A stretch of DNA of 32,000 bases from Nostoc punctiforme PCC 73102 (GCF_000020025.1 NC_010632.1:1-32000), one strand, 5' to 3'; shown: positions 244 through 32,000, counted from the stretch's first letter. Made by a program: numbers and translations. The notes: generated by a model from the letters alone, not told the origin.

Positions 244-486
244 ATGGCAACCAAAGAAATCTTCGTTAAAGAATACACCGTCAAAGCGCATAAACGGCAA
301 ATCCACACGCGCTTATTCAACTTCGTCTGTTGTAAGCAATGCGATCAACCCACCAGTCGTGAGACTTACGCCCCATGCCCCTTGTACTGCGAAACCTGTC
401 GTCCACCTGCACCACCTAAGAAATCTTTAGTGGAGCCGGAGAAGAAGGGTAAGCCAAGACCCATGACTTATAAAAGTGATAAGTAG
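244..486 (+). CDS. Small zinc-ribbon-like protein (80 aa), paralog of 4424..4672
   Basis: Intact ORF with two Cys pairs (CCKQC ... CETC). It shares the block EYTV.AHKR.IHTR.FNFVC.QC.QPT.RET....PLYCE.CRPP.PKKS with the ORF at 4424..4672. Conservation between diverged paralogs supports real coding. Confidence 0.6.
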
Positions 487-2618: not shown

Positions 2619-3065
2619 GTGTTGCAGAAAATCTTCAGCGAATTCGTTAAGCGGCAGAATCCATTTATAGTCTTGATCCAAAAACACCCGATACGATGCA
2701 ATTATCGGTAGTGCTAAGTCCGTTGGCCTACCAAACCCAAATGAGTATTTACTGTCAGGGAGCAAAGTAGTTTTGCGTATATCAATAGATGCTAAATCGT
2801 TGACACCCTTTCTTCTGGGGTTACTAATATGATCTTGGATGATTTCATAGAGTCTTTGGTCTATCCACAAGGCTTGAGAGAGTAAAGGCAGTAGGGCAGT
2901 TAATCTTTCCCTCTCAGTGTCGCTAATTTAAGTTAATTAGAGTTGAGTTGGTCTTGAACTTGTGCAATCAGAAAATCTAAAATTATCTAAGCGGGACAGT
3001 TTATCTTTCACTAATTAACTGTAACAAGGCTTCAGTTGATATCTTGCCACTAATATCAGTAGCTT
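2619..3065 (-). pseudogene. Deletion-derivative remnant of the AIPR-like gene plus the SNF2 3' end
   Basis: 2619-2929 aligns by eye with 4994-5304 (the C-terminal part of the AIPR-like CDS). 2931-3065 aligns with 6008-6142 (the intergenic spacer plus the last ~20 codons of the SNF2 gene). About 700 bp encoding the AIPR N-terminus, including its start codon, is missing. The tracked ORF 2586..2870 is the residual frame. Confidence 0.8.
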
Positions 3066-3099: not shown

Positions 3100-4050
3100 A
3101 TGCTCAGTCCAACTACCGACTCAGTTCGCTCCTACCTTAAAGAAATCGGTCGCTATCCTCTGCTGACTCCTGACCAAGAAATTACAAACGCTCGACTCGT
3201 GCAGCAGATGATGGCGGTTGAAGAACAGCGCTCAAACCTCGCACTTCAACTCAACCGCCAACCAACTGACTTGGAATTAGCTACGTCGCTTGGGCAAAAC
3301 GAAGCTGAACTACAATCAGTCATCCAACAAGGCCAAAAGGCTAAACAGAAAATGGTGACAGCTAACCTGCGTCTAGTGGTTTCTGTTGCCAAAAAATACC
3401 AGAACTACAGTTTAGATTTTCTTGACTTGCTGCAAGAAGGGGCGCTGGGGCTGCAACGAGGGATTGAAAAGTTTGACCCTAACAAAGGCTACAAACTATC
3501 AACCTATGTTTATTGGTGGATCACGCAATCGATAACACGGGCTGTAGCAGATAAGTCTCGCACTATCCGTCTGCCAATCCATATAAACGAAAAATTAAAC
3601 AAAATCAGGAGAGTACAGCAGCAACTATCTCAATCTTTGGGTCGCCCTCCAGTTGTGGCAGAAATTGCCGAATCGTTGAATCTATCGCCCAATCAAATAC
3701 GGGAATATCTTCAGATTTCTAAGCCTCTAGTCTCCTTAGAAAAGCGAGTGGGAGATGAGGGTGAAAGTGAACTAGCCGATATTTTGCCGATGGATGGCAT
3801 TTCTCTAGATGAGCAAATAACTCTTGAGTCTCTACAGCAGGACTTAGCCAAGTTGCTGGCATTGCTTAAGCCAAGGCAACGAGAAGTATTGACTTTACGT
3901 TTTGGATTGTCAGATAATCAGCAGTTGACTTTGAGTCAAGTTGCAAAACGCCTAAACCTAAGTCGAGAAACAATTCGTAAAACTGAACATCTTGCTCTCT
4001 CTATTTTGCGCTCTCATCAAAATAAAATTAAAGACTATCTTCTTAATTAA
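3100..4050 (+). CDS. RNA polymerase sigma-70 family factor (group-2-like)
   Basis: Region 1.2 SVRSYLKEIGRYPLLT. Region 2 LVVSVAKKYQ..LDFLDLLQEGALGLQRGIEKFDPNKGYKLSTYVYWWITQSITRAV. RpoD-box-like TIRLPIHINEKLNKI. Region 4.2 LTLSQVAKRLNLSRETIRKTE. Confidence 0.9.
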   Translation: MLSPTTDSVRSYLKEIGRYPLLTPDQEITNARLVQQMMAVEEQRSNLALQLNRQPTDLELATSLGQNEAELQSVIQQGQKAKQKMVTANLRLVVSVAKKYQNYSLDFLDLLQEGALGLQRGIEKFDPNKGYKLSTYVYWWITQSITRAVADKSRTIRLPIHINEKLNKIRRVQQQLSQSLGRPPVVAEIAESLNLSPNQIREYLQISKPLVSLEKRVGDEGESELADILPMDGISLDEQITLESLQQDLAKLLALLKPRQREVLTLRFGLSDNQQLTLSQVAKRLNLSRETIRKTEHLALSILRSHQNKIKDYLLN

Positions 4051-4063
4051 GTGTTTCATTTGT

Positions 4064-4369
4064 ATGAGCAAAACCCGCTACTCCAAAGATTGGAAACAAA
4101 TCGCTACAGCTGTAAAAGATGCTTCCAATTGGCGCTGTACCAAGTGCGATCGCATCTGCTTGCGCCCTGGTGAGAAACCATCAGAGCTAACTCTATCCCA
4201 ACGCCGGGTTTATAACCTTCAAGTACACCATTACAACTTCGACCCATCTGATAACCGAAAAGAAAACTTGGGCTGTCTTTGCAGTGGCTGCCATCTTCAC
4301 TATCACCGATTTAGACGAGGCAATATTTCACCTGGGCAATTGTCACTGTTTCAATTAAATGATGCATGA
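4064..4369 (+). CDS. HNH endonuclease-like protein (about 101 aa)
   Basis: WRCTKCDR ... LQVHHYNFDPSDNRKENLGCLCSGCHLHYH gives an HNH/Cys-box pattern. I chose the ATG at 4064 because the tracked start at 3992 overlaps the sigma gene and encodes a hydrophobic, junk-like leader. Confidence 0.75.
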   Translation: MSKTRYSKDWKQIATAVKDASNWRCTKCDRICLRPGEKPSELTLSQRRVYNLQVHHYNFDPSDNRKENLGCLCSGCHLHYHRFRRGNISPGQLSLFQLNDA

Positions 4370-4423: not shown

Positions 4424-4672
4424 ATGCCCAGCAAAACTATTGATGTCCGAGAGTACACCGTCAGAGCGCACAAGCGGGAAATTCACACCCGCGTTTTCAA
4501 CTTCGTATGTAAGCAGTGCGAACAACCCACGCAAAGAGAAACTTTTGGTGTGCGACCTCTATATTGCGAGAAATGCCGTCCGCCACAAGCACCCAAGAAA
4601 TCAGTAGTCCCGATAGACAAGAGGAAACCCAGAGCGATGAACTACAAAAGCGGGAAAGGCATTGCGGGGTAA
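4424..4672 (+). CDS. Small zinc-ribbon-like protein (82 aa), paralog of 244..486
   Basis: Same conserved block and Cys pairs (CKQC ... CEKC) as 244..486. Confidence 0.6.
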
Positions 4673-4798: not shown

Positions 4799-6007
4799 TT
4801 AACCTGAAGTCAACGTTAATTTCTGACGCTGATTGCCAGAGTTAACCATTTTCACCAAGGAAGAATTCAAATAGCTTTGCGCCGAAATATACAAGCTTTC
4901 CCAAATGTCTTGGTTACGGCTAATTTTCGTACCTACGGTATTTCCTGCTGTTTTCTCCGACACTAAATATTTACGGAAATAGTTCGTCCACAAGTGTTGC
5001 AGAAAATCTTCGGCGAATTCGTTAAAGGGCAGAATCCATTTATAATCTTGATCCAAAAACACTCGATAGGATGCAATTATCGGTAATACCAGGTCAGTTG
5101 GCGCACCAAACCCGAATGAATACTTGCTGTCCGGCAACAACGTCGTTTTACGTATATCAATAGATGCTAAATCATTAACACCCTTTCTTCTGGGGTTGCT
5201 AATATGATCTTGGATGATTTCATAGAGTCTTTGCTCTATCCACAAGGCATGAGTTAGTAGAGGTAGCAGGGCAGTTAATCTTTCCCTCTCAGTGTCGCTA
5301 ATTTGAGAGGGGATACTCATACCTGCCGGGTGCTTGGTTCGTTTATTGCTGTCGGGGTTGTATTTATTTCTGTCCAGGCAGTAAAGGAGCTTCAGCAAAT
5401 GGGTTACATTGCACTGGGCATTTCTGGGAGCGCCACTTTGATTCTGGTAATAGGCAATGCGGAATTTTCTATCTTCTGCCTTTTCTAACTGAGCTAAATA
5501 CTGCTTGATGAATTTGTAATCCCCCCTGGCGTTGACTTTAGAGCGAGAATCTACTGGCGTTGTTGTATTTGATGCCAGGGCGATATCTTTGGCTTCATCT
5601 TCCACTAACCCAATGTGGATAGTGACTTTGACTCTAGCTTGGCTTAGGTCGTATTTGTAATTCTTCGCCTGCTCAAAAGCTAAAACTGTATGACCACCGT
5701 TAATAATCCCATCGCTTCCTCCCTCACTAGCTTCTAAGACTTCTAGTTCAAGTTCGGTTTTATTTTTATTGGGTTTAATTTTATTTACACACAGGGTTAT
5801 TCCACTGTGACGCGAGAAGAATTTATCTGGTTGTGTCGTCACTGAGTCGAAGATTTGCCTGTATGTCGCACTTTTGCGGTTTGGTTCCCTGATGTTTGGT
5901 TCTAGCGGTAGGTCTGTAGGGAATGTGTCTACATGGGCAGTGGCGATAATGCAATTAGGTGCGGCTTGAAAATAGCTATCTATTTTTAAGTTCCAAGTCT
6001 TGGGCAT
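4799..6007 (-). CDS. AIPR-like (abortive infection phage resistance family) / ParB-DndB-fold-like protein
   Basis: 402-aa intact ORF located 70 nt downstream of the SNF2 gene on the same strand. The motifs PNIREPNRKS, FFSRHSGITL and GIINGGHT resemble the N.R ... NNGIT ... NGGQT pattern I associate with Pfam AIPR (PF10592). This assignment is from memory of the family and has not been searched. Confidence 0.55.
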   Translation of the reverse strand: MPKTWNLKIDSYFQAAPNCIIATAHVDTFPTDLPLEPNIREPNRKSATYRQIFDSVTTQPDKFFSRHSGITLCVNKIKPNKNKTELELEVLEASEGGSDGIINGGHTVLAFEQAKNYKYDLSQARVKVTIHIGLVEDEAKDIALASNTTTPVDSRSKVNARGDYKFIKQYLAQLEKAEDRKFRIAYYQNQSGAPRNAQCNVTHLLKLLYCLDRNKYNPDSNKRTKHPAGMSIPSQISDTERERLTALLPLLTHALWIEQRLYEIIQDHISNPRRKGVNDLASIDIRKTTLLPDSKYSFGFGAPTDLVLPIIASYRVFLDQDYKWILPFNEFAEDFLQHLWTNYFRKYLVSEKTAGNTVGTKISRNQDIWESLYISAQSYLNSSLVKMVNSGNQRQKLTLTSG

Positions 6008-6077
6008 AGTTGATTAGAGTTAAGTTGGTCTTGAACTTGTACAAACAGAAAATCTAAAATTATGCAATCAGAACAGC

Positions 6078-9000
6078 TTATCCTTGACTAATTAACTGTA
6101 ACAAGGCTTCCGTTGATATCTTGCCACTCATATCAGTACCTTCTAAGAGACTGTCTGCTAAATCTCGCTTTTGGTGATGCAGTTGCACAATCTTTTCTTC
6201 AATAGTATCTTTTGCAACTAGACGATAAATTGTCACTGGGCGTTGTTGCCCAATCCGATGAGCGCGGTCTGAAGCTTGGTCTTCCACAGCGGGATTCCAC
6301 CAAGGGTCTGTATGGATGACATAATCAGCAGCAGTCAGATTGAGTCCTGTACCTCCGGCTTTGAGACTAATAAGAAAGACATCCCCTGAACCAGCCTGAA
6401 ACGCATCCACCCGTTTTTTACGCTCTGCCACTGAAGTACTGCCATCTAGATATTGATAATTAATCCCTTGCTGTTCGAGGTAATCGCGGATAATGTGCAA
6501 ATGGTCAACAAACTGACTAAACACTAACGCCTTATGACGATTTTCCAGCAGTTCACCCAGCACCTCACCAAAAAGTTGCAACTTAGAACTGGGTAATACA
6601 GTATCAGGCATCACTAAACTAGGATTACAACAAGCGCGACGTAATTTCATAATCTCAGCCAAAACTTGCAAATGTTTCTTTCCAGCATCTGCATCACTTT
6701 CGGTAAGTTTAGATATTGCTTGACGGCGCAATGCCTCATAAAATGCCTTTTCTTCTCGACTTAACTCTACATGAAGGAGAATTTCGGTACGAGATGGCAA
6801 CTCTTCTAACACCTGATTTTTTGTCCGACGCAACAGAAATGGTTGAATCAGTTTTTTGAGTTTATTACGTGCAAGTTTATCCTGATATTTTTCAATTGGG
6901 ACGGCAAAGCGTTGATTGAAGCTTTCAAATGAACCCAATAATCCAGGATTAATAAAGCGGAACAAATTCCACAACTCACCCAGGTGATTCTCAATGGGAG
7001 TCCCAGTAGTCAGCAACTTAAAATTAGATTTTAGGTTCATGGCTGCCTGAGAACGTTTAGTGGTCATATTTTTAATCGCCTGGGCTTCATCCAGGACAAT
7101 AGTTTGCCAGTGTACAACAGAGAGCATTTGAGCTACTTCTTCCTGCTGTAATAAACCATAGCTGCATACCAACATATCTAACGGTTGTAACCCATCCAAT
7201 AATTTTTGGCGGTTAGCACCAGAAAATTGAATAATATTGAGGGTTGGGGCAAACTTCTGCGCTTCACTCACCCAATTCATGCACACAGAAGTGGGGGCAA
7301 TAATTAGGGTTGGCCCTTCATGGGCATTTCTGAGAATGACCGCCAATGCCTGCAAGGTCTTACCGAGTCCCATTTGGTCTGCCAAACAAGCTCCTACACC
7401 CCAATGTGCCAAACGCGCCAGCCAACAAAAACCCTCCATCTGGTAGTCACGTAGTTCTGCTTGAAGGGTAGATGGCAGTTCTGGCTGGAGGTTTTTTACC
7501 TCATGGAGATGCTCTCTATGTGTTTTCCAGTGTTTATCTGCTTTTACCTTACCTACCTCATCGACAAAATCTTCTAACCCTAATGTTGCCAATGGGTGAA
7601 AACGAATACCTTTATTATGCTTTTCCGAAAACATCCGTAATTCGTCGAGGCGTTTCCGAAAAGCTTGAGTTAAAGCCAGAAATTGACCATCACCAAGGGG
7701 GATAAATCGGCTGGGGGTTTTCTCCAACAGTTCCAGGAGTTGCTGCATATCTAGCACAAGGTCGTTATTCAATTTCAACTCACCAGTGGCTGCAAACCAG
7801 TCTTGCTGACGTTGAATTGATAAATTAAAGTCTTTCAGGTCGGCATTGTGGCTAATATGCAGCTTTTCTCCTTCTGGCCACGCCATGACTACTTTATTTC
7901 CCAGCGCTTGCAGTTCTAGCAGCAGTTCTAAACATGACTCTGGGTCAACTATTACCCATTCACCATCTTGTTCTTCACTTTGAGCCAAGGTGGGACAGGC
8001 GGCTACAGCGTCGGCGGCAAGTTGCTTCTCAAGAGAAAGATTTCGTCTGGTTTGGAAACGTTTACCCTCAATCTCAGCAATGACAGTTTCACCACCTGTA
8101 CCAGGACGAAAGTAAGGGCCACCTTGGGTAAAAGGGCGCGACAACAGGGTGATTTTCAAGCCGACATTGGCAGGTAAAAGGTGAATATGGGGTAGAGTCT
8201 GGGCGGGTACTTCTTCTGCACCTTCTGAGCCGCCACCAATGTCAGAATGCACTGTGACGATGCCAGAAACGGCATTTATGGCTGCTAAAACTTGCTTTTC
8301 GGCGAAGGCAGGTACGTTTAATTTATTATCCTTACCTATAATCTGTGCGATGCGTCTGTGTTCGGTTGTAATTTCAATAACTTTGATGCGAGTTGGGGTT
8401 TCTTTGATATGCAGAATATTCTGTGATTCTGGTAATTTGGGAGAAAATTCCAAGGTGAGACGACCAAGTTTTTCTTTTTTAACTAGTAGTTCCGGTTCTC
8501 CCTTGACGATTTCTACACGAATATTGGGCATATCTTCCCAAAAAACTAAGGGGTGTCCAATTAAGGCAGAGATGGCTTTTTCGCCGAAGGTATAATCAAC
8601 TTTGCCATAATAGCCCTCACTATATACCTCAATACAACTGCATACCCGCATATCTTGGGGCGTGACGTAATCAAACTCAGCTAATCCACTGCTCAGGCGT
8701 TTGAGGGCTATAGGGCGACCTTTACTCCATTCTCCTTTGGCATTAACTTTTTGTTCCTTTGGTTGTAAGACACATTTGCTGGGATAGAAAGTAATGAACC
8801 ATGCTAAACGCAGTTGGGATTCTGGTTTTAGAGATGTTTGTGGTTGTTTTTGGAGATTTGCTAAGGCATTGAGGCACATTTCCCAAGCCTCTTGGGGTCG
8901 AATTAGGTCTACGATGGTTTGAATATTGCTATCTTCTCGCAGTGCTTCTGCTTCTTTTTGATACTTACTACTAGGTTTAAGCCGGGATAGGAGTTCTGCG

Positions 9001-10289
9001 GTTTCCATTGCCAACCAGTGATAACCGGAGGCGAACGAGCGCTGATATAATGGCTCTAATAACTTAGGTAAGCGTTTTTTCGCACCCTCAGCATCCATCC
9101 AGTAAAGGCATAGTGAACAAAACAATGTTTGTAAGCTATTTTCTTCTTCTACTGAAGAGATATGGGCGCTAAGTACAAATTGTTTTTGAGTAATATCACC
9201 CTGGTGTACTTGCAGCACTGTTTTCAATCTGCCATAAATAAACCTGAGCCAATGATCTCCTTGACGAGACATTAAATTGGTGTATTCTTCTGCTTCTTTG
9301 AGGCGTTGTGCTGAACCATCTTTTAACAACGCCAGGATAAAAAATAAGCCCCCCATTGTATTGAAATATATTTGGCGTTTGCCTGTAGCCTTTTTTATCG
9401 CTTTCAGGGCATCTGTATAATATTTTATGGCTTGCTCATTCTCACCCCGTAGAAAACTTAACCAACCCCAAAAGATAGCAGCGTTATTTTGATATTCATT
9501 CGATACCCGCTCCAGACTTTCTTGCGCTTCTTGGGTACAGCCCTGTAACAGCAGTTGTTCTGTTAAAATCAGGTGCAGATAATCAGAACAATGTTTTCCA
9601 CCTGTTGAACATTGTTCTGACAGCATCATTAAAGCATCCTCAGACACAGACAATTTTAATGCACAATTCAGGAAGATACTTGATATCCCACTTTCATATA
9701 ATCCTTGGGGTAAGGTGTTAAACCCATCTGCATCAAATGGGTTATTAAATATCTGCTCGAAAATATTTTCTATTACTAGCTTTTCTTCACTATCAGCATA
9801 CTTCTGGTAATCTTCAATTTGCTTATTAATAAAGTTAAGGTCTTGACGATAAATACCAATGCGGATTTCTCTGATACACTGGCGCAGACTGTAGAATATC
9901 CGAGAATCATGGTTCCAATGAGTACGTATAGGGAACTTTGACTCTACTGCTATTACTTGGATTTCAAACTGTCCAGTTTGTACAGCATGACGAGTAGCAA
10001 TTTCTGTGAGTAGCGGATGACATTCAGGGCTTTGCCTGCCTGACTGCACTAGCAAACCTACTTTTAACAATTTATCAATTTGGGGACTGAGAGTTTTAGT
10101 AACCCAAAGTTTATTCTTTTCATCTAAAGCACCCATTTTGCTAAGACAGCTTAGAAGTGAATTTTTGTCCACAGGTGCATAAATTATCGCCAAAAGCTGG
10201 ATAACTTTTTGTACAGAACTATCTAAATCAAAGTATTGATTCGCAAGTTTTGTTTGAAGATTTGTAGTATCATTTGCCAATTTAGTCAT
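6078..10289 (-). CDS. SNF2/Swi2-family ATPase with ~900-aa unassigned N-terminal region
   Basis: The C-terminal third carries LRDYQMEGF, ADQMGLGKT (motif I), LDEAQAIKN (II), LTGTPIENHLGELW (III), KALVFSQF, LISLKAGGTGLNLT (V) and QASDRAHRIGQQRPV (VI). Residues 1-900 have no motif I recognise. Confidence 0.9.
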   Translation of the reverse strand: MTKLANDTTNLQTKLANQYFDLDSSVQKVIQLLAIIYAPVDKNSLLSCLSKMGALDEKNKLWVTKTLSPQIDKLLKVGLLVQSGRQSPECHPLLTEIATRHAVQTGQFEIQVIAVESKFPIRTHWNHDSRIFYSLRQCIREIRIGIYRQDLNFINKQIEDYQKYADSEEKLVIENIFEQIFNNPFDADGFNTLPQGLYESGISSIFLNCALKLSVSEDALMMLSEQCSTGGKHCSDYLHLILTEQLLLQGCTQEAQESLERVSNEYQNNAAIFWGWLSFLRGENEQAIKYYTDALKAIKKATGKRQIYFNTMGGLFFILALLKDGSAQRLKEAEEYTNLMSRQGDHWLRFIYGRLKTVLQVHQGDITQKQFVLSAHISSVEEENSLQTLFCSLCLYWMDAEGAKKRLPKLLEPLYQRSFASGYHWLAMETAELLSRLKPSSKYQKEAEALREDSNIQTIVDLIRPQEAWEMCLNALANLQKQPQTSLKPESQLRLAWFITFYPSKCVLQPKEQKVNAKGEWSKGRPIALKRLSSGLAEFDYVTPQDMRVCSCIEVYSEGYYGKVDYTFGEKAISALIGHPLVFWEDMPNIRVEIVKGEPELLVKKEKLGRLTLEFSPKLPESQNILHIKETPTRIKVIEITTEHRRIAQIIGKDNKLNVPAFAEKQVLAAINAVSGIVTVHSDIGGGSEGAEEVPAQTLPHIHLLPANVGLKITLLSRPFTQGGPYFRPGTGGETVIAEIEGKRFQTRRNLSLEKQLAADAVAACPTLAQSEEQDGEWVIVDPESCLELLLELQALGNKVVMAWPEGEKLHISHNADLKDFNLSIQRQQDWFAATGELKLNNDLVLDMQQLLELLEKTPSRFIPLGDGQFLALTQAFRKRLDELRMFSEKHNKGIRFHPLATLGLEDFVDEVGKVKADKHWKTHREHLHEVKNLQPELPSTLQAELRDYQMEGFCWLARLAHWGVGACLADQMGLGKTLQALAVILRNAHEGPTLIIAPTSVCMNWVSEAQKFAPTLNIIQFSGANRQKLLDGLQPLDMLVCSYGLLQQEEVAQMLSVVHWQTIVLDEAQAIKNMTTKRSQAAMNLKSNFKLLTTGTPIENHLGELWNLFRFINPGLLGSFESFNQRFAVPIEKYQDKLARNKLKKLIQPFLLRRTKNQVLEELPSRTEILLHVELSREEKAFYEALRRQAISKLTESDADAGKKHLQVLAEIMKLRRACCNPSLVMPDTVLPSSKLQLFGEVLGELLENRHKALVFSQFVDHLHIIRDYLEQQGINYQYLDGSTSVAERKKRVDAFQAGSGDVFLISLKAGGTGLNLTAADYVIHTDPWWNPAVEDQASDRAHRIGQQRPVTIYRLVAKDTIEEKIVQLHHQKRDLADSLLEGTDMSGKISTEALLQLISQG

Positions 10290-10291
10290 AA

Positions 10292-10943
10292 CTACTTATT
10301 TAATTGTTTAAATAATTTTATTAAATTAAGTTTCTGTCTATGAGCCGCTTCTAATTGTGAATGATAGGCAGACCGTTCAGCTTTTCGTCCAAGTTGAAAA
10401 TAAGCTATTTTTACTTTTTTGAGCCAGTTAACCACAGCCTCATAACAGTACCAAGTTTCTCCTGCATAGTCTCGAATTTTACCATAGTCTCGAAACCACG
10501 GTCTGATTTTAGGTCTAATTTTAAAAGTAATAATGCCAGCAGTTAAGGCAGTAGCATTATCCTCTAATCCTTTGAGCTAAATTGCTAGTCCAAGCAGTAA
10601 ATTCATACAAACAGTTATCTGATACATATATACCAGTAAGACATATTGACAATGTTTTAACCAGATAGCTATCTTCTGGCAGTATTTTTGCCAGGGCAAA
10701 ACCCTCCCCTGCTCTTACGTGAGGATTTTAATTTTAGCCGCAGACATCGCCTCTTCTACTCTTCCCAAAGCTGCTAATTGCCTCAGTACAAAAAGTTGAG
10801 GTAATTCCACCTGCCTCAAAACGAATACTAGCTTGATATCGTGTTATTTTGTTTTTTGGTGTCCGACCGCAGGACTTTGGAAAAATGCTGCCCTCCTCAA
10901 CCTCCCAAGCAATTGATCGCACGTTCAAAGTGGGAATACTCAA
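10292..10943 (-). pseudogene. Degenerate reading frame directly upstream of the SNF2 gene
   Basis: The frame of ORF 10734..10943 continues past two close stops (TAA AAT TAA) into ..HVRAGEGFALAKILPEDSYL.. . After one frameshift it continues into a 94-codon stop-to-stop frame without a start (LKGLEDNATALTAG...AYHSQLEAAHRQKLN). That frame ends at TAG 10292-10294, 2 nt before the SNF2 ATG. Identity is unknown. A possible remnant of the SWIM-type partner common in SNF2 operons is speculation only. Confidence 0.35.
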
Positions 10944-13384: not shown

Positions 13385-14926
13385 TTAATTGTCGTGAAAG
13401 CCGAGATTTTCTAGTAATAGAGTCACCCCCTTTTCGTTTAACTCTTGCCCTGTTAATTCGTGCCACTTTTGTTTGATTTCCTGAAAATGTGGTCTTCTCC
13501 CTAATTCTGTTGCCCATTTTCTAATTTCTTCATACCAGTCAACCTGCTGCTGTGAGGATTGCTGATTATTTTTAGAACTATTAACAGTGTCATTATTCGG
13601 CTTGGAATCTTGTTTTTGTTCCAGACCTTTGATATCAAATTCCGGGATTAGGGCAACAAAGGGATTACCACGAGTTGGAATTACTAGGGCATATCGAACT
13701 CCGGCTTTATCCAACATTTCGCAAGCCTGTCGCAAGATTTCAAGAATTTCTTTTTTGACATTCAGAAAATCCTGGGGATGGTCAAGGATATAACTCGATG
13801 TCTGCCCTACAGCAATAAAGCAAACGTTTTTCAGAGATGGGCGACTAAATCCGGTTTCTCCAGAGAGCGGGGACTGGCCCATAAACACCCCATGTCCTTT
13901 AAGTCCGGCGGTGAATTTGATGATATAGTTCCAAAAACCTTGCAAGTCTTTGGCAGTATCAGCATCAACCATTCCTGGAAGTCCCTTGCCACCACCATAA
14001 ACACTATCTACTTCATCCTGAGCAAGAAATAATTCGGGAACACCGTGACATTCACCACCAACAATTGATACTCTTGCTTTCTGCTTGTCAATTTGGTCTG
14101 TGGCAAAGGTAATCCAATCTCTTAACGCTTTCATACCGTCAAACTTACGGCTGAACTTGCACAACCATCTGGTGACATCATCTTTTGGATCGCTGCCGAT
14201 GACAATTGCTGGCGTTTGAGATTTTGCACCAATTTTGTTGATAATCACCCCAGCCAGCGTAGACTTCCCAGATTGTGTACCACCAGATAGGTAAAAATGG
14301 TGATTACTGCGAAGAGTCATATTTTGATTAGATGCAGCATCACACAGTTCATCAATCCAAGCACTATCAATTCTGATGTATTCAGGATAATTAGCTGCGA
14401 TCGCTTGCAGAACTTTCATTGCACCTGGATTGATGATGCTCTGTACAAACTCTTCATCAATGTCAGCAATATCAGGATTGGGAATACCAGTCCGCGAAGG
14501 TTGGTGTTGTGCTGGTGGTTCGGGCAGAGTTACCAAGCCTTGCAACTGGTATTCAGCTATCCACCGGGGGCGCTCAGTAATGGGCAGACGATTCACATAA
14601 TCAGCAACTCTGCGTTTGGCATCAATCGCTGTAGTTACATAATTGTATGCTGCTTGACCTTGCAAATGTTGTTTGAGTGCTTTCAAATCAGCTTCTAGCA
14701 AAGATTTGTAAACTTTTTCCTTACTTTCGCTGATTTGGGCAGATACCCCAAACAAACCAGCACTAATCGTCCCAGCGCCGAGTAAGATTCCGGTTGTTAT
14801 TCTGTCAGTATTTAAGAAAAAAGGAGCAGACAGACATAACACTGCACTCGCTCCTAAACTGCATAAGATAGTCCGTTCTGCATGAATTACACTACTGGCA
14901 GTTAGTCGTTCTAATTCAAAACCCAT
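13385..14926 (-). CDS. Membrane-anchored P-loop NTPase (FtsK/TraB/type-IV-coupling-protein-like)
   Basis: Two N-terminal hydrophobic segments (ILCSLGASAVLCLSAPFFL; GILLGAGTISAGLFGVSA). Walker A is FYLSGGTQSGKSTLAG and Walker B is PELFLAQDEVD, followed by GHGVFMGQSP. There is a basic helical C-terminal tail. The family assignment comes from motif order only. Confidence 0.6.
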   Translation of the reverse strand: MGFELERLTASSVIHAERTILCSLGASAVLCLSAPFFLNTDRITTGILLGAGTISAGLFGVSAQISESKEKVYKSLLEADLKALKQHLQGQAAYNYVTTAIDAKRRVADYVNRLPITERPRWIAEYQLQGLVTLPEPPAQHQPSRTGIPNPDIADIDEEFVQSIINPGAMKVLQAIAANYPEYIRIDSAWIDELCDAASNQNMTLRSNHHFYLSGGTQSGKSTLAGVIINKIGAKSQTPAIVIGSDPKDDVTRWLCKFSRKFDGMKALRDWITFATDQIDKQKARVSIVGGECHGVPELFLAQDEVDSVYGGGKGLPGMVDADTAKDLQGFWNYIIKFTAGLKGHGVFMGQSPLSGETGFSRPSLKNVCFIAVGQTSSYILDHPQDFLNVKKEILEILRQACEMLDKAGVRYALVIPTRGNPFVALIPEFDIKGLEQKQDSKPNNDTVNSSKNNQQSSQQQVDWYEEIRKWATELGRRPHFQEIKQKWHELTGQELNEKGVTLLLENLGFHDN

Positions 14927-15220: not shown

Positions 15221-15255
15221 CAGAATCCAGAAGTCAGGAGCCAGGAGTCAGAATG
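15221..15255. repeat. Tandem heptamer array (5 x CAGRAKN)
   Basis: CAGAATC CAGAAGT CAGGAGC CAGGAGT CAGAATG. It is the inverted complement of the array at 15603-15636 and supplies the last codons and stop of the four-helix-bundle gene. Confidence 0.9.
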
Positions 15256-15599
15256 GAATTAGAATAACTTGTAAGCAGTTTACTAACTTCTTCAAGTAGC
15301 AGCATTAATTCTGACATATCACCATATTTCAGATCACTTGACAGAATTAAATAATAGCGACACTCTTCTAAAGAGCCTTGAGCAATATTCATAAATTTCG
15401 CTTTATCTGCTAATCCTTTTTTCTTAAAGCCTTCCGCAATATTTGCTGGAATAGAAATTGCTGCTCTTCTAAACTGTGATGTAAGCCCATATATTTCTGA
15501 TTTAGGAAACTCATTAGTTATTCGATACACTGATAAAACAAACCGATGCGCTTTTTGCCAAACTATCAAATCTTGAAATGTTCTTGCTGGTTGTCTCAT
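15234..15599 (-). CDS. Four-helix-bundle protein (23S rRNA intervening-sequence protein family)
   Basis: FQDLIVWQKAHRFVLSVYRITNEFPKSEIYGLTSQFRRAAISIPANIAEGFKKKG..AKFMNIAQGSLEECRYYL is the canonical signature of this family (TIGR02436 / PF05635). Confidence 0.9.
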   Translation of the reverse strand: MRQPARTFQDLIVWQKAHRFVLSVYRITNEFPKSEIYGLTSQFRRAAISIPANIAEGFKKKGLADKAKFMNIAQGSLEECRYYLILSSDLKYGDMSELMLLLEEVSKLLTSYSNSILTPGS

Positions 15600-15602
15600 T
15601 TG

Positions 15603-15636
15603 TTCTGACTCCTGACTTCTGACTCCTGACTCCTGA
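15603..15636. repeat. Tandem heptamer array (4.9 x TYCTGAC)
   Basis: TTCTGAC TCCTGAC TTCTGAC TCCTGAC TCCTGA. It is the reverse complement of the 15221-15255 array and abuts the stop codon (15638-15640) of the upstream gene. Confidence 0.9.
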
Positions 15637-19960: not shown

Positions 19961-20135
19961 CAATTCGCAATTCGCAGTTCGCAATTCGCAATTAAATACA
20001 AGAAATCACTTGTTATTTAATTGTTAATTAATGGGTCTTAATCCACCACTGATTCAAAAGAAAGTGGTCTTAAATCAGTGGTGGGTTTAAGCTCTCACTG
20101 ATTCAATCAATTGCGAATTGCGAATTGCGAATTGC
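19961..20135. repeat. Element bounded by inverted heptamer arrays (CAATTCG)n / (AATTGCG)n
   Basis: Left array is 19961-19993 (4.7 copies) and right array is 20109-20135 (3.9 copies, reverse complement). The 115-nt interior contains the hairpin CCACCACTGATT ... AATCAGTGGTGG. Confidence 0.85.
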
Positions 20136-28217: not shown

Positions 28218-29091
28218 ATGTCTCGCCCAAAACGTAACTTGCAACCTGGATTTTGTTACCACATCACAACCCGTTGCAACAATAGAGAATTTCGCCTGAC
28301 TTGCCTGGAATGCCGTGAAGTCTTTCTCTACGCCATTAAAAAAGCGCAAGAAAAGTATAGGTTTAAGCTTTATGCTTTGTGTATCATGAGCAACCATGTC
28401 CACTACCTCCTGGAATCAAAGCAACCAGAAGACTTGCCTAAAATTATGCACTGGCTCAACTGGTACACAGCGATGTGTTTCAATCGGATGTTGAACCGCA
28501 CAGGGCATTTTTGGGAAAAGAGGTATCACAGCACGGGCTTTGCCAACACAGATTATCGACGAGCTTTGAATACTCTGCGGTACATTCACGCTAACCCGAA
28601 AGCCGCCCAGATGCAGCAGGGCTTTTTCTATGACTTTAGCAATTATGGGATTCACGACCGCTTGGGCAACGATGGTATTACTCCAATGGCATCCGGCATT
28701 TTTGCAGTTAGGCAGGACTTTAGAAGAATGTGCGGCGAGATATCGTAGGTTTTGTCAGAAATACCGATCACAGGCGAAGCCAGAGAAACGAAATCACTGG
28801 GGTAGCAACTTTTTGCCATCAGTAATGAAGGGTGGGAAGGCAAAAAAGCCATCACCAGGGCAGATGAGTTTATCTTGGGACAAGCAGCAAGTAACGGAAT
28901 CTACTGAGGTGCATGAGGTAGCAGCAAAATTTATTCAAGCGAATTGCTTAAAGCCGCCAGTGCCAGGTATCGGATTCCTGAATGTTGATTCATTCGTGGA
29001 AAATGAGGTGGAGATAAATGTTTACAAAATTCCCAAAGCTTTAGATGTTACACTTTACATCTCTGCGCGAGAGAAAGTTAAGCGCACCTGA
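28218..29091 (+). pseudogene. IS200/IS605-type Y1 (HUH) transposase-like / RAYT-like gene with a 1-nt frameshift
   Basis: HUH motif SNHVHYLL and Tyr motif LRYIHANP. The family-typical continuation QWHPAFLQLGRTLEECAARYRRFCQKY lies in the +1 frame. Removing one C of the CC at 28683-28684 joins ..GNDGIT to QWHPAF.. Confidence 0.7.
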
Positions 29092-29351
29092 CTTTCCCAT
29101 CTCAATTCCCCTATCCCAATTCCAACCACCCATCCCAAAGTTTTTGTATAAATTAACGCAGGTAGTAATGGCGATGCTGGCAACGGCAATGGCACATCAT
29201 CTGTTTTCTCGAACTTTTTCATTATTTCATAATAGCTCAACCAGCTATATTGTTTCCAACCAACGAGCTCACCAAAAACATCCCATTTATCATCGCTATA
29301 GCTCGGACTGCCTAAATTTCGATAAATTTTCGCTTGGATGCTGATGCCAAA
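29055..29351 (-). pseudogene. C-terminal (GUN4-domain) fragment of the IS-disrupted STAND NTPase gene
   Basis: FGISIQAKIYRNLGSPSYSDDKWDVFGELVGWKQYSWLSYYEI matches the GUN4 domain pattern (FGFSVQ..IW ... FG..VGW ... WL.Y). It joins in frame to 30777.. once the IS and one TSD copy are removed. Confidence 0.75.
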
Positions 29352-29358
29352 ATTATTA

Positions 29359-30776
29359 GGCTCTTCCAGAGTAGTTATGTTAAAATAGTATAAATAAATT
29401 CAATATATCTCAATAGAATAGCAGTAATCGGTGGCAACAGCCTGTGCAGAGAAGGAAATACAGAAGCAATTGAGAATATAAAACACAAGAAATATTGAAA
29501 ATAGAATTAATATTTTAATAAATATGCCTTCTAATCCCTTACTTCATTTTATTACTAAAGTTATTAATATTGAAGATATCAAAGTATTGAATTACGATTT
29601 TATCACTGATGATGAAATCGTAATTGAAATCCAAAATCAATCAAAAGTTGGTCAGTGTCCTCGGTGTGGAAAGACAACTAATAAAACTCATCAAAATCAT
29701 TGGTATATAGTCAGAGATATACCCATGAGTGACTATCAAGTATTTTTAAAAGTAAATCGTCGGCAATTAAAGTGTACAGAATGCCAAAAAGTATTTAGTG
29801 AGAAACTATCTTTTGTAAAAAGTAGAAGAACCTATACAAAAAGATTAGCGAACAAAGTAATTAAGGAAGTGTTAGAAACTGATGTAGAGAATGCAGCCCG
29901 AAGAAATAGAATGAGTTCATCTGAGATAGAAACAATATTAAAAGAATTAGAATCAGAACTACTAAAAGAAAAACCTAACCAGATAAAAAAGTTAGGAATA
30001 GATGAAATCACGCAATTAAAAGGAGGAAAGAATTATGCAGCAGTATTAGTAGACTTAGAAACAAGAAGACCGATAGCATTGTTAGAGAAGAGAAATAAAG
30101 CGGTTATAGCAGAATACCTATCCAGTCTGGGTTCAGAGATATTAAATCAAATAGAAGAAGTCAGCATAGACTTATGGATACCCTATAAAAGTTTAATCCA
30201 AGAAATGCTACCGAATGCTCAAGTAGTAGCAGATAGATTCCATGTCATGAAACAAATAAATCAGGAGTTAGACGCAAGAAGAAAACAGGAAAAAAGAGCA
30301 GCCTTAAAAATTAAAAATCGCCAAGAAAGAGAAAAGAAATTAACTGGCTTAACTCACAGTAAATACCCTTTGTTAAAGAAAAAAGAATGCCTCAGTTTTC
30401 AGGAACAAGCTCAGATAGATTTACTCAAAAAAGTTGCTCCAGACTTAGGAGAAATGTATCGAAATAAAGAAGCCATTAGAGATATATTTGAAAGTCCCAT
30501 AACCAGTGATGAAGCTTTAGATAAATTCCTGGAATGGACTCAAGGAGCTTATAAATTATTTCCCAAAAGTTGCCGAACTATAAGTAGATGGATAGATGAA
30601 ATTCTTGCTTATTTTGATCGCCGAACTACTCAAGGTATTGTAGAAGGAATTAATCAGAAGATTAAGCTAATTAAATGCAGAGCTTATGGCTTAACTAACT
30701 TTAATAGTTTTAGAAGAAGGGTTTTACTAAATTGGTATTTCTTTTGTTAATTTTACATATCTAGTCTGTGAGAGCC
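29359..30776 (+). mobile_element. ISL3-family insertion sequence (1418 bp) with 8-bp target-site duplication
   Basis: Imperfect terminal inverted repeats GGCTCTTCCAGAGTAGTTATGTTAAAAT (left) and GGCTCTCACAGACTAGATATGTAAAAT (right end, reverse complement). The direct repeat AATTATTA occurs at 29351-29358 and 30777-30784. Confidence 0.85.
29524..30750 (+). CDS. ISL3-family transposase
   Basis: N-terminal zinc finger CPRCG...CTECQ. DDE region LGIDE..., SIDLWIPYKS, PNAQVVADRFHVMK and GIVEGINQKIKLIKCRAYG are typical of DDE_Tnp_ISL3. Confidence 0.9.
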   Translation: MPSNPLLHFITKVINIEDIKVLNYDFITDDEIVIEIQNQSKVGQCPRCGKTTNKTHQNHWYIVRDIPMSDYQVFLKVNRRQLKCTECQKVFSEKLSFVKSRRTYTKRLANKVIKEVLETDVENAARRNRMSSSEIETILKELESELLKEKPNQIKKLGIDEITQLKGGKNYAAVLVDLETRRPIALLEKRNKAVIAEYLSSLGSEILNQIEEVSIDLWIPYKSLIQEMLPNAQVVADRFHVMKQINQELDARRKQEKRAALKIKNRQEREKKLTGLTHSKYPLLKKKECLSFQEQAQIDLLKKVAPDLGEMYRNKEAIRDIFESPITSDEALDKFLEWTQGAYKLFPKSCRTISRWIDEILAYFDRRTTQGIVEGINQKIKLIKCRAYGLTNFNSFRRRVLLNWYFFC

Positions 30777-32000
30777 AATTATTATTACTGTTTTGAAGCC
30801 AGAGACGATTGATTTCTCTAAGAGTTTCACAGGGGAAATTCTCCAGCAGTTCTCGCCACATTCTATAGTTTTCTCTAACCATGACTTGGTAAAAAATCCA
30901 AGCAGTTTCCTCATCTGCTTCTTTCCAGTGTTGTTGCTGAAGATAATTTTCTAATTTTGTGCATAGTTTATCTTCTAACAATTCATTCGTACATTTTCTT
31001 AATTCTCCTTCAAAAGCTTGATCGGCTTCAGAATTATATTGAACTGCCAGCATCTCAGAGAATCCTTGTCTGAATCGTTTGGGATTTTCTTTGTTAGCAA
31101 ACTTCAATTGGAAAATCTCTTGCCATTTTTCTTCGCTTTTGTTTTCTTTATTCCCCCACAACTGATGTAATTTTTCATGAGCTTTTTGGCAGAGAGAATA
31201 TACCTCTGGTGCTTCTGGTAGTTTAATATTGGGGATGAGGTGGGGAAGAATGCGTGAGGCTCGATAAATCCTGTTTTCTTCTTGAAGGTTAGAACTGACC
31301 TCTATGAGTCCCAGTTTTAGCCCCCTTTGTAATTGTTGTTGATAATTAGGAAGCTCGTCACAAGCGGCTTCTAAAGCCACCATAGGTACAGGAATCTTAT
31401 AAACTAAGCAATGGCTAAGAATTTTCTGTAGTGGCTCATCAATAAGCTGATACAATTCCTTCCAAATAATTTTGTATTTCCACAGTTCGGGACTTTGTTC
31501 CAATTGAGTCAGTTTAGCTTCTGCATCTACACAGCTTAAAATTCCATCAAAAAACTCTAATAAGCGAGGATTACCATCCGCTAAATCTAATGCCCGTCTC
31601 AGTAAACTATCAGAAATTTTACCAGAGCTAAAATGTTTTAACCGACTAAGTTTTTTAGTTAACTCAGCATCTTTCAATGGTTCTAGACCTTCTTTATAGA
31701 AAAACTCTAGTAATTCAGAATCAAAATCATAGCGACAGGTAATAATAATTCTATTATTAGTTCCTGTTTCTTGGATTGCTTGTACTAAAGCTTCTAAAAT
31801 TGGAGCTACTTCAGCTTTAAGAACATGTTGCCCTTCGTCGGGGTCAAGATTCCATTCAAAATCATCCAAAATTAAGAGAAATGGTTTTTCACCAATTTCT
31901 GCTAATTGGTTAAATAGATGAGTAAGTTTAATATCTAGACTTTTACCAGATGTTTCTAGAAAGCTACGAATTTCTTGTAATTCTGGCTTAATTAATTTAG
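30777..32000 (-). pseudogene. N-terminal/central part of a STAND (NACHT/AAA-like) NTPase-GUN4 gene, interrupted by the IS and running off the window
   Basis: The frame is open to position 32000. It has a Walker B-like GEKPFLLILDDFEW and a long helical array. It ends ..LREINRLWLQNSNNN at the IS junction, which is the start of the GUN4 motif. Confidence 0.75.

Follow-up and report, generated by a model that had tools for sequence, protein, structure and literature searches.

We analysed a stretch of 32,000 nucleotides from Nostoc punctiforme PCC 73102 (GCF_000020025.1, NC_010632.1:1-32000), referred to below as the window, in which a gene for a giant SNF2-family ATPase is followed by a gene for a short protein with an AIPR domain (Table 1). 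A preliminary description of this DNA had proposed that the two genes constitute a candidate two-gene defence module. The comparison with related loci shows that they belong to two known gene families, which are joined in some lineages only.

Table 1 Features of the SNF2-AIPR locus and its surroundings in the window.
Feature	Position	Strand	Evidence
Giant SNF2-family ATPase, intact, 1403 residues	6078..10289	-	Open reading frame list, Pfam, homologues, dN/dS
SNF2 residues 1-480, helical TPR-like solenoid	8850..10289	-	AF2, Foldseek
SNF2 residues 495-930, beta-rich domain and helical linker	7500..8807	-	AF2, PF08455, PADLOC
SNF2 ATPase core, residues 949-1347, Walker A K977, DEAQ 1067-1070	6249..7445	-	Pfam, motif reading
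SNF2-AIPR spacer, 70 nt	6008..6077	-	Conserved across AIPR-linked loci (blastn)
AIPR-domain-only protein, intact, 402 residues	4799..6007	-	Open reading frame list, PF10592, AF2, dN/dS
SWIM zinc-finger gene, pseudogene remnant	~10295..10943	-	tblastn
Decayed second copy of the SNF2-AIPR junction	2619..3065	-	blastn and direct sequence reading
parA-parB partition genes, plasmid context	589..2578	+	Pfam AAA_31/CbiA and ParB_N/HTH_ParB

The 1403-residue open reading frame (ORF) carries the SNF2 motifs in its last third, as had been described: according to Pfam, SNF2-rel_dom spans residues 949-1225 (E 3.8e-66), and Helicase_C spans residues 1243-1347 (E 1e-25). Both RecA-like lobes with motifs I, II, III, and VI are present, and the protein belongs to families PF00176 and PF00271. 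The motor motifs GLGKT (974-978), DEAQ (1067-1070), TGTPIEN (1095-1101), and QASDRAHRIGQ (1338-1348) are intact. The best sequence match in the PDB is the Rad54-like SNF2 protein of Sulfolobus (1z63, E 1.2e-97), and the family is labelled 'DEAD/DEAH box helicase' in the annotation of Nostocales.

The first 900 residues of the SNF2 protein have no Pfam matches. The preliminary description recognised in them a helical, TPR-like stretch followed by a beta-rich one, and nothing that could be named. The order of the two parts was borne out by an AlphaFold2 (AF2) model of residues 1-930 (mean predicted local distance difference test score, pLDDT, of 78.7), in which residues 1-480 are all-helical with pLDDT mostly of 85-95, and residues 495-800 are beta-rich with pLDDT of 70-90. 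The solenoid matched domain III of MalT, TPR subunits of APC/C, the TPR domain of a STAND protein, NprR, and AimR in a Foldseek search of the PDB. The search used the whole N-terminal model, and the generic TPR matches that dominate its results do not resolve the beta-rich domain. Residues 495-930 are the best-conserved portion of the N-terminus, and PADLOC model PDLC02850 aligned to residues 475-1403. In the homologues P0075, P0085, and P0092, the equivalent region matched PF08455 (SNF2_assoc) at or near the threshold, with full-length homologues scoring 23-28 bits against a cut-off of 27, and the window protein itself had no PF08455 match at E<=0.1. Residues 1-934 used as a query retrieved hundreds of full-length proteins of about 1400 residues with 55-88% identity from Nostocales and other cyanobacteria, encoded both on plasmids and on multi-megabase contigs, and residues 275-924 are ~31% identical to helicases encoded on plasmids of Serratia, Klebsiella, Aeromonas, and Legionella. 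The N-terminus is not an orphan: it consists of a family-conserved TPR-like solenoid and an SNF2_assoc-like beta-rich region. The 248 SNF2 relatives found on contigs representing one genome per species often occur several per genome.

The 402-residue ORF lies 70 nt downstream of the SNF2 gene on the same strand, which was left unstated in the preliminary description and is the minus strand. The motifs reported for it are located at residues 38-43 (NIREPN), 65-72 (SRHSGITL), and 102-107 (INGGHT). Its proposed likeness to AIPR proteins and to ParB and DndB was confirmed. The protein matches PF10592 (AIPR) with an E-value of 8.6e-48 and 164 bits against a cut-off of 25, over residues 35-354 and profile positions 1-304 of 308. 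A Foldseek search of predicted viral structures with the AF2 model (pLDDT 92.3) returned a phage AIPR protein (1e-8), DndB-type 'DNA-sulfur modification-associated' proteins (2e-5), ParB-like nucleases, and N-terminal DUF262 domains of GmrSD (6.5e-5 to 3.5e-4). In the PDB, matches to ParB, Noc, and PadC were weak but recurrent (Foldseek probability of 0.69 for PadC), and SspE gave a single marginal match (E 0.42, probability 0.08). The Pfam family DndB is also touched by 2 of 28 diverse AIPR relatives, and the DndB N-domain was related to AbiU1/AIPR by Makarova et al. (PMC3506569). The AIPR protein is predicted to have a ParB/DndB/DUF262-type fold, the relationship being one at the level of the fold. 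The invariant residues are N38, R40, G100, G104, N147, P227, and R315, and at least 90% of the sequences share H106.

AIPR proteins were described as carrying an N-terminal HEPN toxin, a predicted RNase (PMC3506569), and their genes as passengers of operons for restriction-modification and defence (PMC2292703, PMC3506569). Pfam detects no HEPN in the window protein, in which 34 residues precede the AIPR domain. Residues 3-25 form beta-strands (3-16 and 19-25) in the AF2 model, directly before the start of the domain. With residue 35 as the first of its AIPR domain, the 402-residue protein cannot carry an N-terminal HEPN toxin. The helix-turn-helix (HTH) and dimerisation domains of ParB are absent as well, and PF10592 is the only family that Pfam assigns. 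The AIPR-only architecture of about 400 residues comprises 360 representative clusters at 50% identity, mostly of 380-420 residues, and a search with a diverse AIPR profile retrieved mostly the same Nostocales proteins again.

The short AIPR gene is multi-copy in Nostocales, usually with at least one copy per large plasmid and up to five places on one plasmid. Six plasmids of the single strain Nostoc sp. C052 (CP040273-CP040278) carry it, and some metagenome assemblies contain more than 15 AIPR-bearing contigs each. The possibility that AIPR is cargo of a mobile element was rejected: similarity between the copies stops within ~10 nt of the ORF, and therefore what is conserved is the gene and not a transposon around it. 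A miniature inverted-repeat transposable element (MITE)-like element of ~177 nt, with terminal inverted arrays of the heptamer CAATTCG, interrupts AIPR at codon ~201 on at least nine contigs of one metagenome assembly (L123, L134, and L136-L142; e.g. L137:10604-10780). The copies are 97.7-100% identical, and a related element is located in the window at 19961-20135.

Both genes are under strong purifying selection, with ratios of nonsynonymous to synonymous substitution rates (dN/dS) against orthologues of 0.10-0.15 for SNF2 and 0.05-0.09 for AIPR. Because of these values (0.05-0.15), the two ORFs represent more than chance reading frames, and the substitution pattern indicates that both genes are functional, or were so until very recently. 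The coding strand of the 70-nt spacer contains no terminator-like or promoter-like sites, the scan for promoters and terminators having given a background level, and an Rfam scan of the window found zero RNA families. The decayed second copy is situated directly downstream of parB and is convergent with it. It comprises the last ~14 codons of SNF2, the same spacer, and AIPR codons ~236-336; positions 2931-3065 are similar to the SNF2 3' end with the spacer, and positions 2619-2932 to the AIPR interior, in blastn comparisons with L010, L012, and L013.

Clustering of the ORFs around all SNF2 loci identified the commonest neighbour of SNF2 as an upstream gene on the same strand, at a median gap of 11 nt, which encodes a SWIM zinc-finger protein. 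The intact protein has 588 residues, belongs to PF04434, and matches the PADLOC candidate PDC-S62 (1.9e-21). The gene is intact in 18 loci (e.g. L019:6639-8405 and L013:3878-5644), one of which, L035, has it as two overlapping pieces, and only remnants are left in ~17 loci. The window belongs to the latter: an adjacent intact SWIM gene is not present in it, and pseudogene remnants alone were found. A tblastn search with the L019 protein placed residues 539-588 at 10295-10444 (70%) and residues 340-453 at 10451-10810 (47%), and the N-terminal SWIM piece 'YQASIRFEAGGITS' is located within the ORF 10734-10943. The complete order SWIM-SNF2-AIPR is retained in L013.

The pseudogenisation of the SWIM partner and the decay of the second copy of the pair, together with insertion sequence (IS) and MITE elements nearby and AIPR copies interrupted by MITEs in one assembly, could indicate that SNF2 and AIPR are themselves relics on the way to loss, which have no current function. 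This is highly improbable, since neither ORF is truncated, all catalytic and invariant residues have been preserved, and dN/dS is low for both.

Whether the two genes travel together was determined in an SNF2-anchored sample with one genome per species (80 loci, 59 of them with at least 1.4 kb of downstream sequence), in an AIPR-anchored metagenome sample (68 loci, 43 with at least 1.5 kb upstream), and on the complete plasmids of PLSDB. An AIPR gene was considered linked if it was intact, within 2 kb of SNF2, and on the same strand. Intact AIPR is present downstream of SNF2 in 7 of the 59 loci, with gaps of 81 nt (L010, L012, L013, and L020), 130 nt (L055), 141 nt (L037), and 1251 nt (L074); the SNF2 locus of L083 is cut by the contig end. 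A giant SNF2 gene is present upstream in 1 of the 43 AIPR-anchored loci, on the same contig as L074. PLSDB contains 45 records with AIPR at 62 places and 13 cyanobacterial records with SNF2; the genes are adjacent at none of the 62 AIPR places, and the five plasmids with both genes have them 32-120 kb apart. The adjacency is thus inherited but rare: the arrangement recurs in at least seven other species-level genomes, but the mutual co-occurrence and adjacency required of an obligate SNF2 and AIPR pair was not observed in any of the three samples.

In phylogenetic trees, the loci with adjacent genes cluster mainly in SNF2 clade alpha, equivalent to AIPR clade A (the window, L010, L012, L013, and L083). 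It also occurs in SNF2 clade beta, equivalent to AIPR clade B (L037 and L055), and in the singletons L020 and L074. AIPR has been lost repeatedly beside intact SNF2. L036 keeps AIPR codons 355-401 only, next to SNF2, and is the one locus of the 59 with an AIPR remnant there; L023 has a remnant (codons 1-30) ~6 kb downstream of intact SNF2; and L014 lacks AIPR though it belongs to the AIPR-linked clade. The synonymous divergence (dS) of AIPR is about twice that of SNF2 for the same locus pairs (window versus L012, L013, L010, and L020; e.g. 0.62 versus 0.28), a sign of decoupled histories, which suggests that AIPR may have been exchanged among paralogues, or that SNF2 may have been homogenised.

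The surroundings listed in the preliminary description were all found in the window: ParA (589-1452) and ParB (1454-2578), which Pfam identifies as a plasmid partition locus, a weak HNH match at 3992-4369, IS200 and ISL3 elements at 28218-30750, and the decayed second copy. Their interpretation as a defence island was not upheld. Restriction-modification and abortive-infection (RM/Abi) genes are represented by 0 of 31 further ORFs in Pfam searches. Nine further window ORFs compared to PADLOC yielded five matches, comprising weak partial ones to mad8, PtuB, and PD-T4-6, and a stronger, domain-level match to a ZorE-like HNH; partner genes of any known defence system were not found among the scanned window ORFs. 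At other loci, ParA/ParB genes are located within 6 kb of SNF2 in ~10 of 83 cases. Co-directional parA-parB-SNF2 arrays are present in L068:68-5944 and L076:102-5981 (gaps of 4-5 nt) and in L008:7006-13091 (163-nt gap), and SNF2 adjoins par genes on Acaryochloris plasmid pREB6 (L164) and on an IncFII plasmid of Serratia (L163), that is, in two phyla. In places, SNF2 has the appearance of a third member of a parA-parB operon.

The genes upstream of AIPR are varied and include an ABC transporter, a plasmid protein combining DUF3854 with a helicase, a Mob_Pre-Toprim relaxase, a pPIWI-RE module, and an unannotated, Pfam-negative protein of ~320 residues, which is named 'cytosolic protein' in the RefSeq record of L090. 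At 19 of 70 AIPR loci, an upstream ORF on the same strand is missing. AIPR is often near genes for plasmid sigma factors, orf82, and ParB, and also near Rep-like and Mob genes. The pPIWI-RE case is L167:1-7203, from the chromosome of Tolypothrix tenuis PCC 7101, where a module with pPIWI_RE_Z and X, MID, and RNaseH-PIWI domains is followed after ~300 nt by an AIPR-only homologue (73% identity), and this in turn by xisH and xisI. Both SNF2 and AIPR belong to the plasmid replication, partition, and mobilisation neighbourhood of Nostocales and not to an RM/Abi island.

SNF2 remains intact in most lineages after the loss of AIPR, and most AIPR copies never had an SNF2 neighbour. Therefore, the two genes do not form an obligate two-gene system, and an obligate two-gene system of phage defence is unlikely, while a functional link between SNF2 and AIPR is possible. 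We lean towards the explanation that two otherwise independently distributed genes, which are probably co-transcribed here, have been inherited side by side in the maintenance region of a Nostoc megaplasmid, in an arrangement that is dispensable. The SNF2 protein would most likely be an ATP-driven translocase of double-stranded DNA, for which the TPR-like solenoid and the SNF2_assoc-like domain may supply targeting or partner binding. As the SWIM gene of the window has decayed, a partner, if one is needed here, may come from a paralogue in trans. The AIPR protein most likely binds DNA, and possibly a nucleotide, and has no recognisable effector domain. It belongs to a family that is multi-copy in Nostocales, whose copies neighbour the Rep, Mob, Par, and sigma-factor genes of plasmids and follow upstream genes of various kinds. 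Any part that the two genes play in conflicts involving plasmids or mobile elements is one that we infer.

Several observations weigh against a dispensable juxtaposition. In clades alpha and beta and in L020, blastn aligns the loci across the spacer without a break. Because of these contiguous alignments, and of an SNF2 dS of up to ~0.65 between clades, the junction is homologous and old. AIPR is kept at nearly every clade alpha locus. The second copy in the window preserves the same SNF2-AIPR junction, which shows that the two genes were at one time duplicated together. The 70-nt spacer has no detected terminator or promoter, and purifying selection acts on both genes. A role of AIPR as an add-on to DNA-acting ATPases is plausible because AIPR proteins ride defence operons (PMC2292703, PMC3506569) and one homologue follows a pPIWI-RE module. 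Moreover, Nostoc genomes contain several SNF2 and AIPR paralogues each, so that separated genes could cooperate in trans.

The age of the junction bears also on the alternative that SWIM, SNF2, and AIPR, or the latter two, form a defence or anti-mobile-element operon, which exists in some Nostoc lineages only and is eroding in the window. Foreign or modified DNA would be the target that the ParB/DndB-like AIPR protein detects and on which the SNF2 translocase works. We consider such an operon fairly unlikely. It agrees with the intact three-gene order in L013, with the conservation of junction and spacer in clades alpha and beta and the absence of a terminator between the genes, and with the duplication of the pair as a unit. 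The connection of AIPR to defence in the literature (PMC2292703, PMC3506569) and its position beside pPIWI-RE in L167, the match of the SWIM protein to PDC-S62, and the similarity of the SNF2 core to ZorD, DrmD, and the PADLOC 'DpdE' models point in the same direction. However, the co-occurrence of SNF2 and AIPR is low both ways, and SNF2 stays intact after repeated losses of AIPR and, in the window, of SWIM. A recognisable effector, such as a nuclease or HEPN, is present in none of the three proteins, and the scanned window ORFs include no RM/Abi neighbours. Furthermore, the 55-88% identity of SNF2 across cyanobacteria and its dN/dS of 0.10-0.15 among Nostocales loci are unlike those of fast-evolving defence genes. 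The two-gene module of the preliminary description withstands the grounds that had been named for giving it up, since the 402-residue protein is AIPR-like, the adjacency recurs outside this strain, and the pair corresponds to no named system, but the low co-occurrence and the SWIM gene as the more frequent partner of SNF2 speak against it.

The plasmid genes around both families raise another alternative, which we regard as distinctly unlikely: SNF2 could be a partition accessory and AIPR a replicon-specific ParB-fold factor in plasmid maintenance or inter-replicon competition, and the two would be neighbours through a shared plasmid core. The co-directional parA-parB-SNF2 arrays and the par-adjacent SNF2 genes of pREB6 and the Serratia plasmid are consistent with this, as are the occurrence of AIPR on 45 Nostocales plasmids, including six in Nostoc sp. 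C052, its proximity to Rep-like, Mob, ParB, and sigma-factor genes, and its predicted ParB-type fold. Nevertheless, par genes accompany only about ten of the 83 SNF2 loci, many copies of SNF2 and of AIPR are probably chromosomal, being situated on multi-megabase contigs, the AIPR protein has neither the HTH nor the dimerisation domain of ParB, and neither family has been tied to partition by experiment. More broadly, we speculate that on large plasmids SNF2 could be an accessory to ParB-fold DNA-loading proteins in general, with SWIM-SNF2-(AIPR or ParB) as an undescribed system of replicon maintenance or inter-replicon conflict; we think this very doubtful. If it were correct, some replicons would have SNF2 in third place in a parA-parB operon and others would have it paired with the ParB/DndB-like AIPR, and the recognition of particular replicons would fall to the short AIPR paralogues that Nostocales have in multiple copies.

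The rest of the window contains mostly unannotated ORFs and IS elements. A complete plasmid-encoded sigma-70 factor (regions 1.2, 2, 3, and 4) is located at 3100-4050 (+), and a plasmid sigma factor recurs beside AIPR on other Nostoc plasmids. The 3' side of the sigma-factor gene is overlapped by the small HNH ORF (+), which PADLOC matches as ZorE-like (5e-11). Two paralogous ORFs of ~80 residues, at 4424-4672 (+) and 244-486 (+), share ~70% nucleotide identity and CxxC...CxxC motifs; they belong to no Pfam family, and many Nostoc contigs have homologues of them in the vicinity of the genes for the plasmid sigma factor, AIPR, and SNF2. A 513-residue ORF at 13385-14926 (-), also without a Pfam family, has a weak match to PADLOC mad8 (3.7e-06, residues 204-272) as its sole match and is the first in a series of small ORFs on the minus strand, all unannotated, that extends to ~19.7 kb. 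The gene at 15234-15599 (-) encodes a four-helix protein of the 23S-rRNA-intervening-sequence or bAvd-like type (PF05635, E 7e-37), and it is preceded by an array of CTGACTC heptamers at 15605-15636. The IS elements encode an IS200-type Y1 transposase at 28218-28748 (+) and an ISL3 transposase at 29524-30750 (+). The 380-residue protein encoded at 30727-31869 (-) has a C-terminal GUN4-like domain and a match to PADLOC PD-T4-6 (7.6e-12).

If the SNF2-AIPR pair were a real system, a module of an SNF2 protein and a ParB-fold protein would join the anti-phage or anti-plasmid mechanisms, and the AIPR-only family would obtain its first functional partner. The more modest outcome is a conserved cyanobacterial SNF2 family with a SWIM protein as its more frequent partner, and a family of short AIPR proteins whose gene, in Nostocales, behaves like a multi-copy part of the plasmid backbone. 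This has value for annotation and cautions against assigning a defence module on the strength of one case of adjacency. For experiments, the most promising starting point is that both families repeatedly lie close to the Par, Rep, and Mob genes of plasmids.

A full-text search, including PF10592 and MzaE, found no published description of an SNF2-AIPR pair, and comparisons with NCBIfam and PADLOC agree with the initial statement that no named system consists of an SNF2 giant and AIPR. Zorya type I was rejected because its model NF041790 scored 248 bits against a cut-off of 1500 and ZorA, ZorB, and ZorC had no matches in the scanned window ORFs. DISARM was rejected on DrmD scores of 105 bits against 950 and 61 against 610, and DrmA, DrmB, and DrmC or a methylase were not found in the scanned ORFs. 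The Dpd system was raised by very strong PADLOC 'DpdE' matches, but NF041062 scored 49 bits against a cut-off of 500, and none of the window ORFs scanned encodes a TGT-like DpdA or another Dpd protein; the strong 'DpdE' matches reflect a shared SNF2 architecture. For MZA, MzaE scored 18.3 bits against a cut-off of 1050, and the window AIPR had no PADLOC match. Identity with a BREX helicase was dismissed, since scores were below the curated cut-offs and the partners are missing.

The window proteins nevertheless resemble components of these and other systems. ZorD of Zorya I, DrmD of DISARM, and DpdE of Dpd have a homologous SNF2 motor (PADLOC E-values from 2.4e-190, for 'DpdE' PDLC02850, to 1e-42), and the ZorD structure 8qy7 is matched by the window SNF2 with an E-value of 1.8e-59. 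In contrast to them, the window SNF2 has no Mrr nuclease domain, and the ZorABC, DrmABC, and DpdABC partners were not found in the window. MzaE of MZA is an AIPR-family protein, to which the window AIPR has a distant similarity in the AIPR domain. The AbiU1/AIPR proteins of RM/Abi operons (PMC2292703, PMC3506569) are similar in the PF10592 domain and in their position at the 3' end of an operon, after a gene for a DNA-acting ATPase, whereas the window protein has an AIPR-only architecture of ~400 residues, no HEPN, and no methylase or restriction neighbours. The ParB/Srx-fold sensors (DndB, the DUF262 proteins GmrSD and SspE, ParB, Noc, and PadC) differ in that the window AIPR has no fused nuclease (DUF1524/HNH), HTH, or dimerisation domain and no dnd or ssp genes nearby, but the predicted fold is alike, and the motif (N/D)GGH(T/R) recalls DGQHR. 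The SNF2 gene may be compared also to bacterial pairs of SWIM and SNF2 (SNF2_assoc, PF08455) genes, such as ywqB-ywqA of B. subtilis. The window family differs from pairs of this type by the additional N-terminal TPR-like solenoid of ~480 residues and by a SWIM protein of 588 residues, whose window copy is a pseudogene, and the window SNF2 scores below the PF08455 threshold. The family shares with them the SNF2 core placed after a beta-rich domain similar to SNF2_assoc and, in 18 related loci, the SWIM gene upstream on the same strand.

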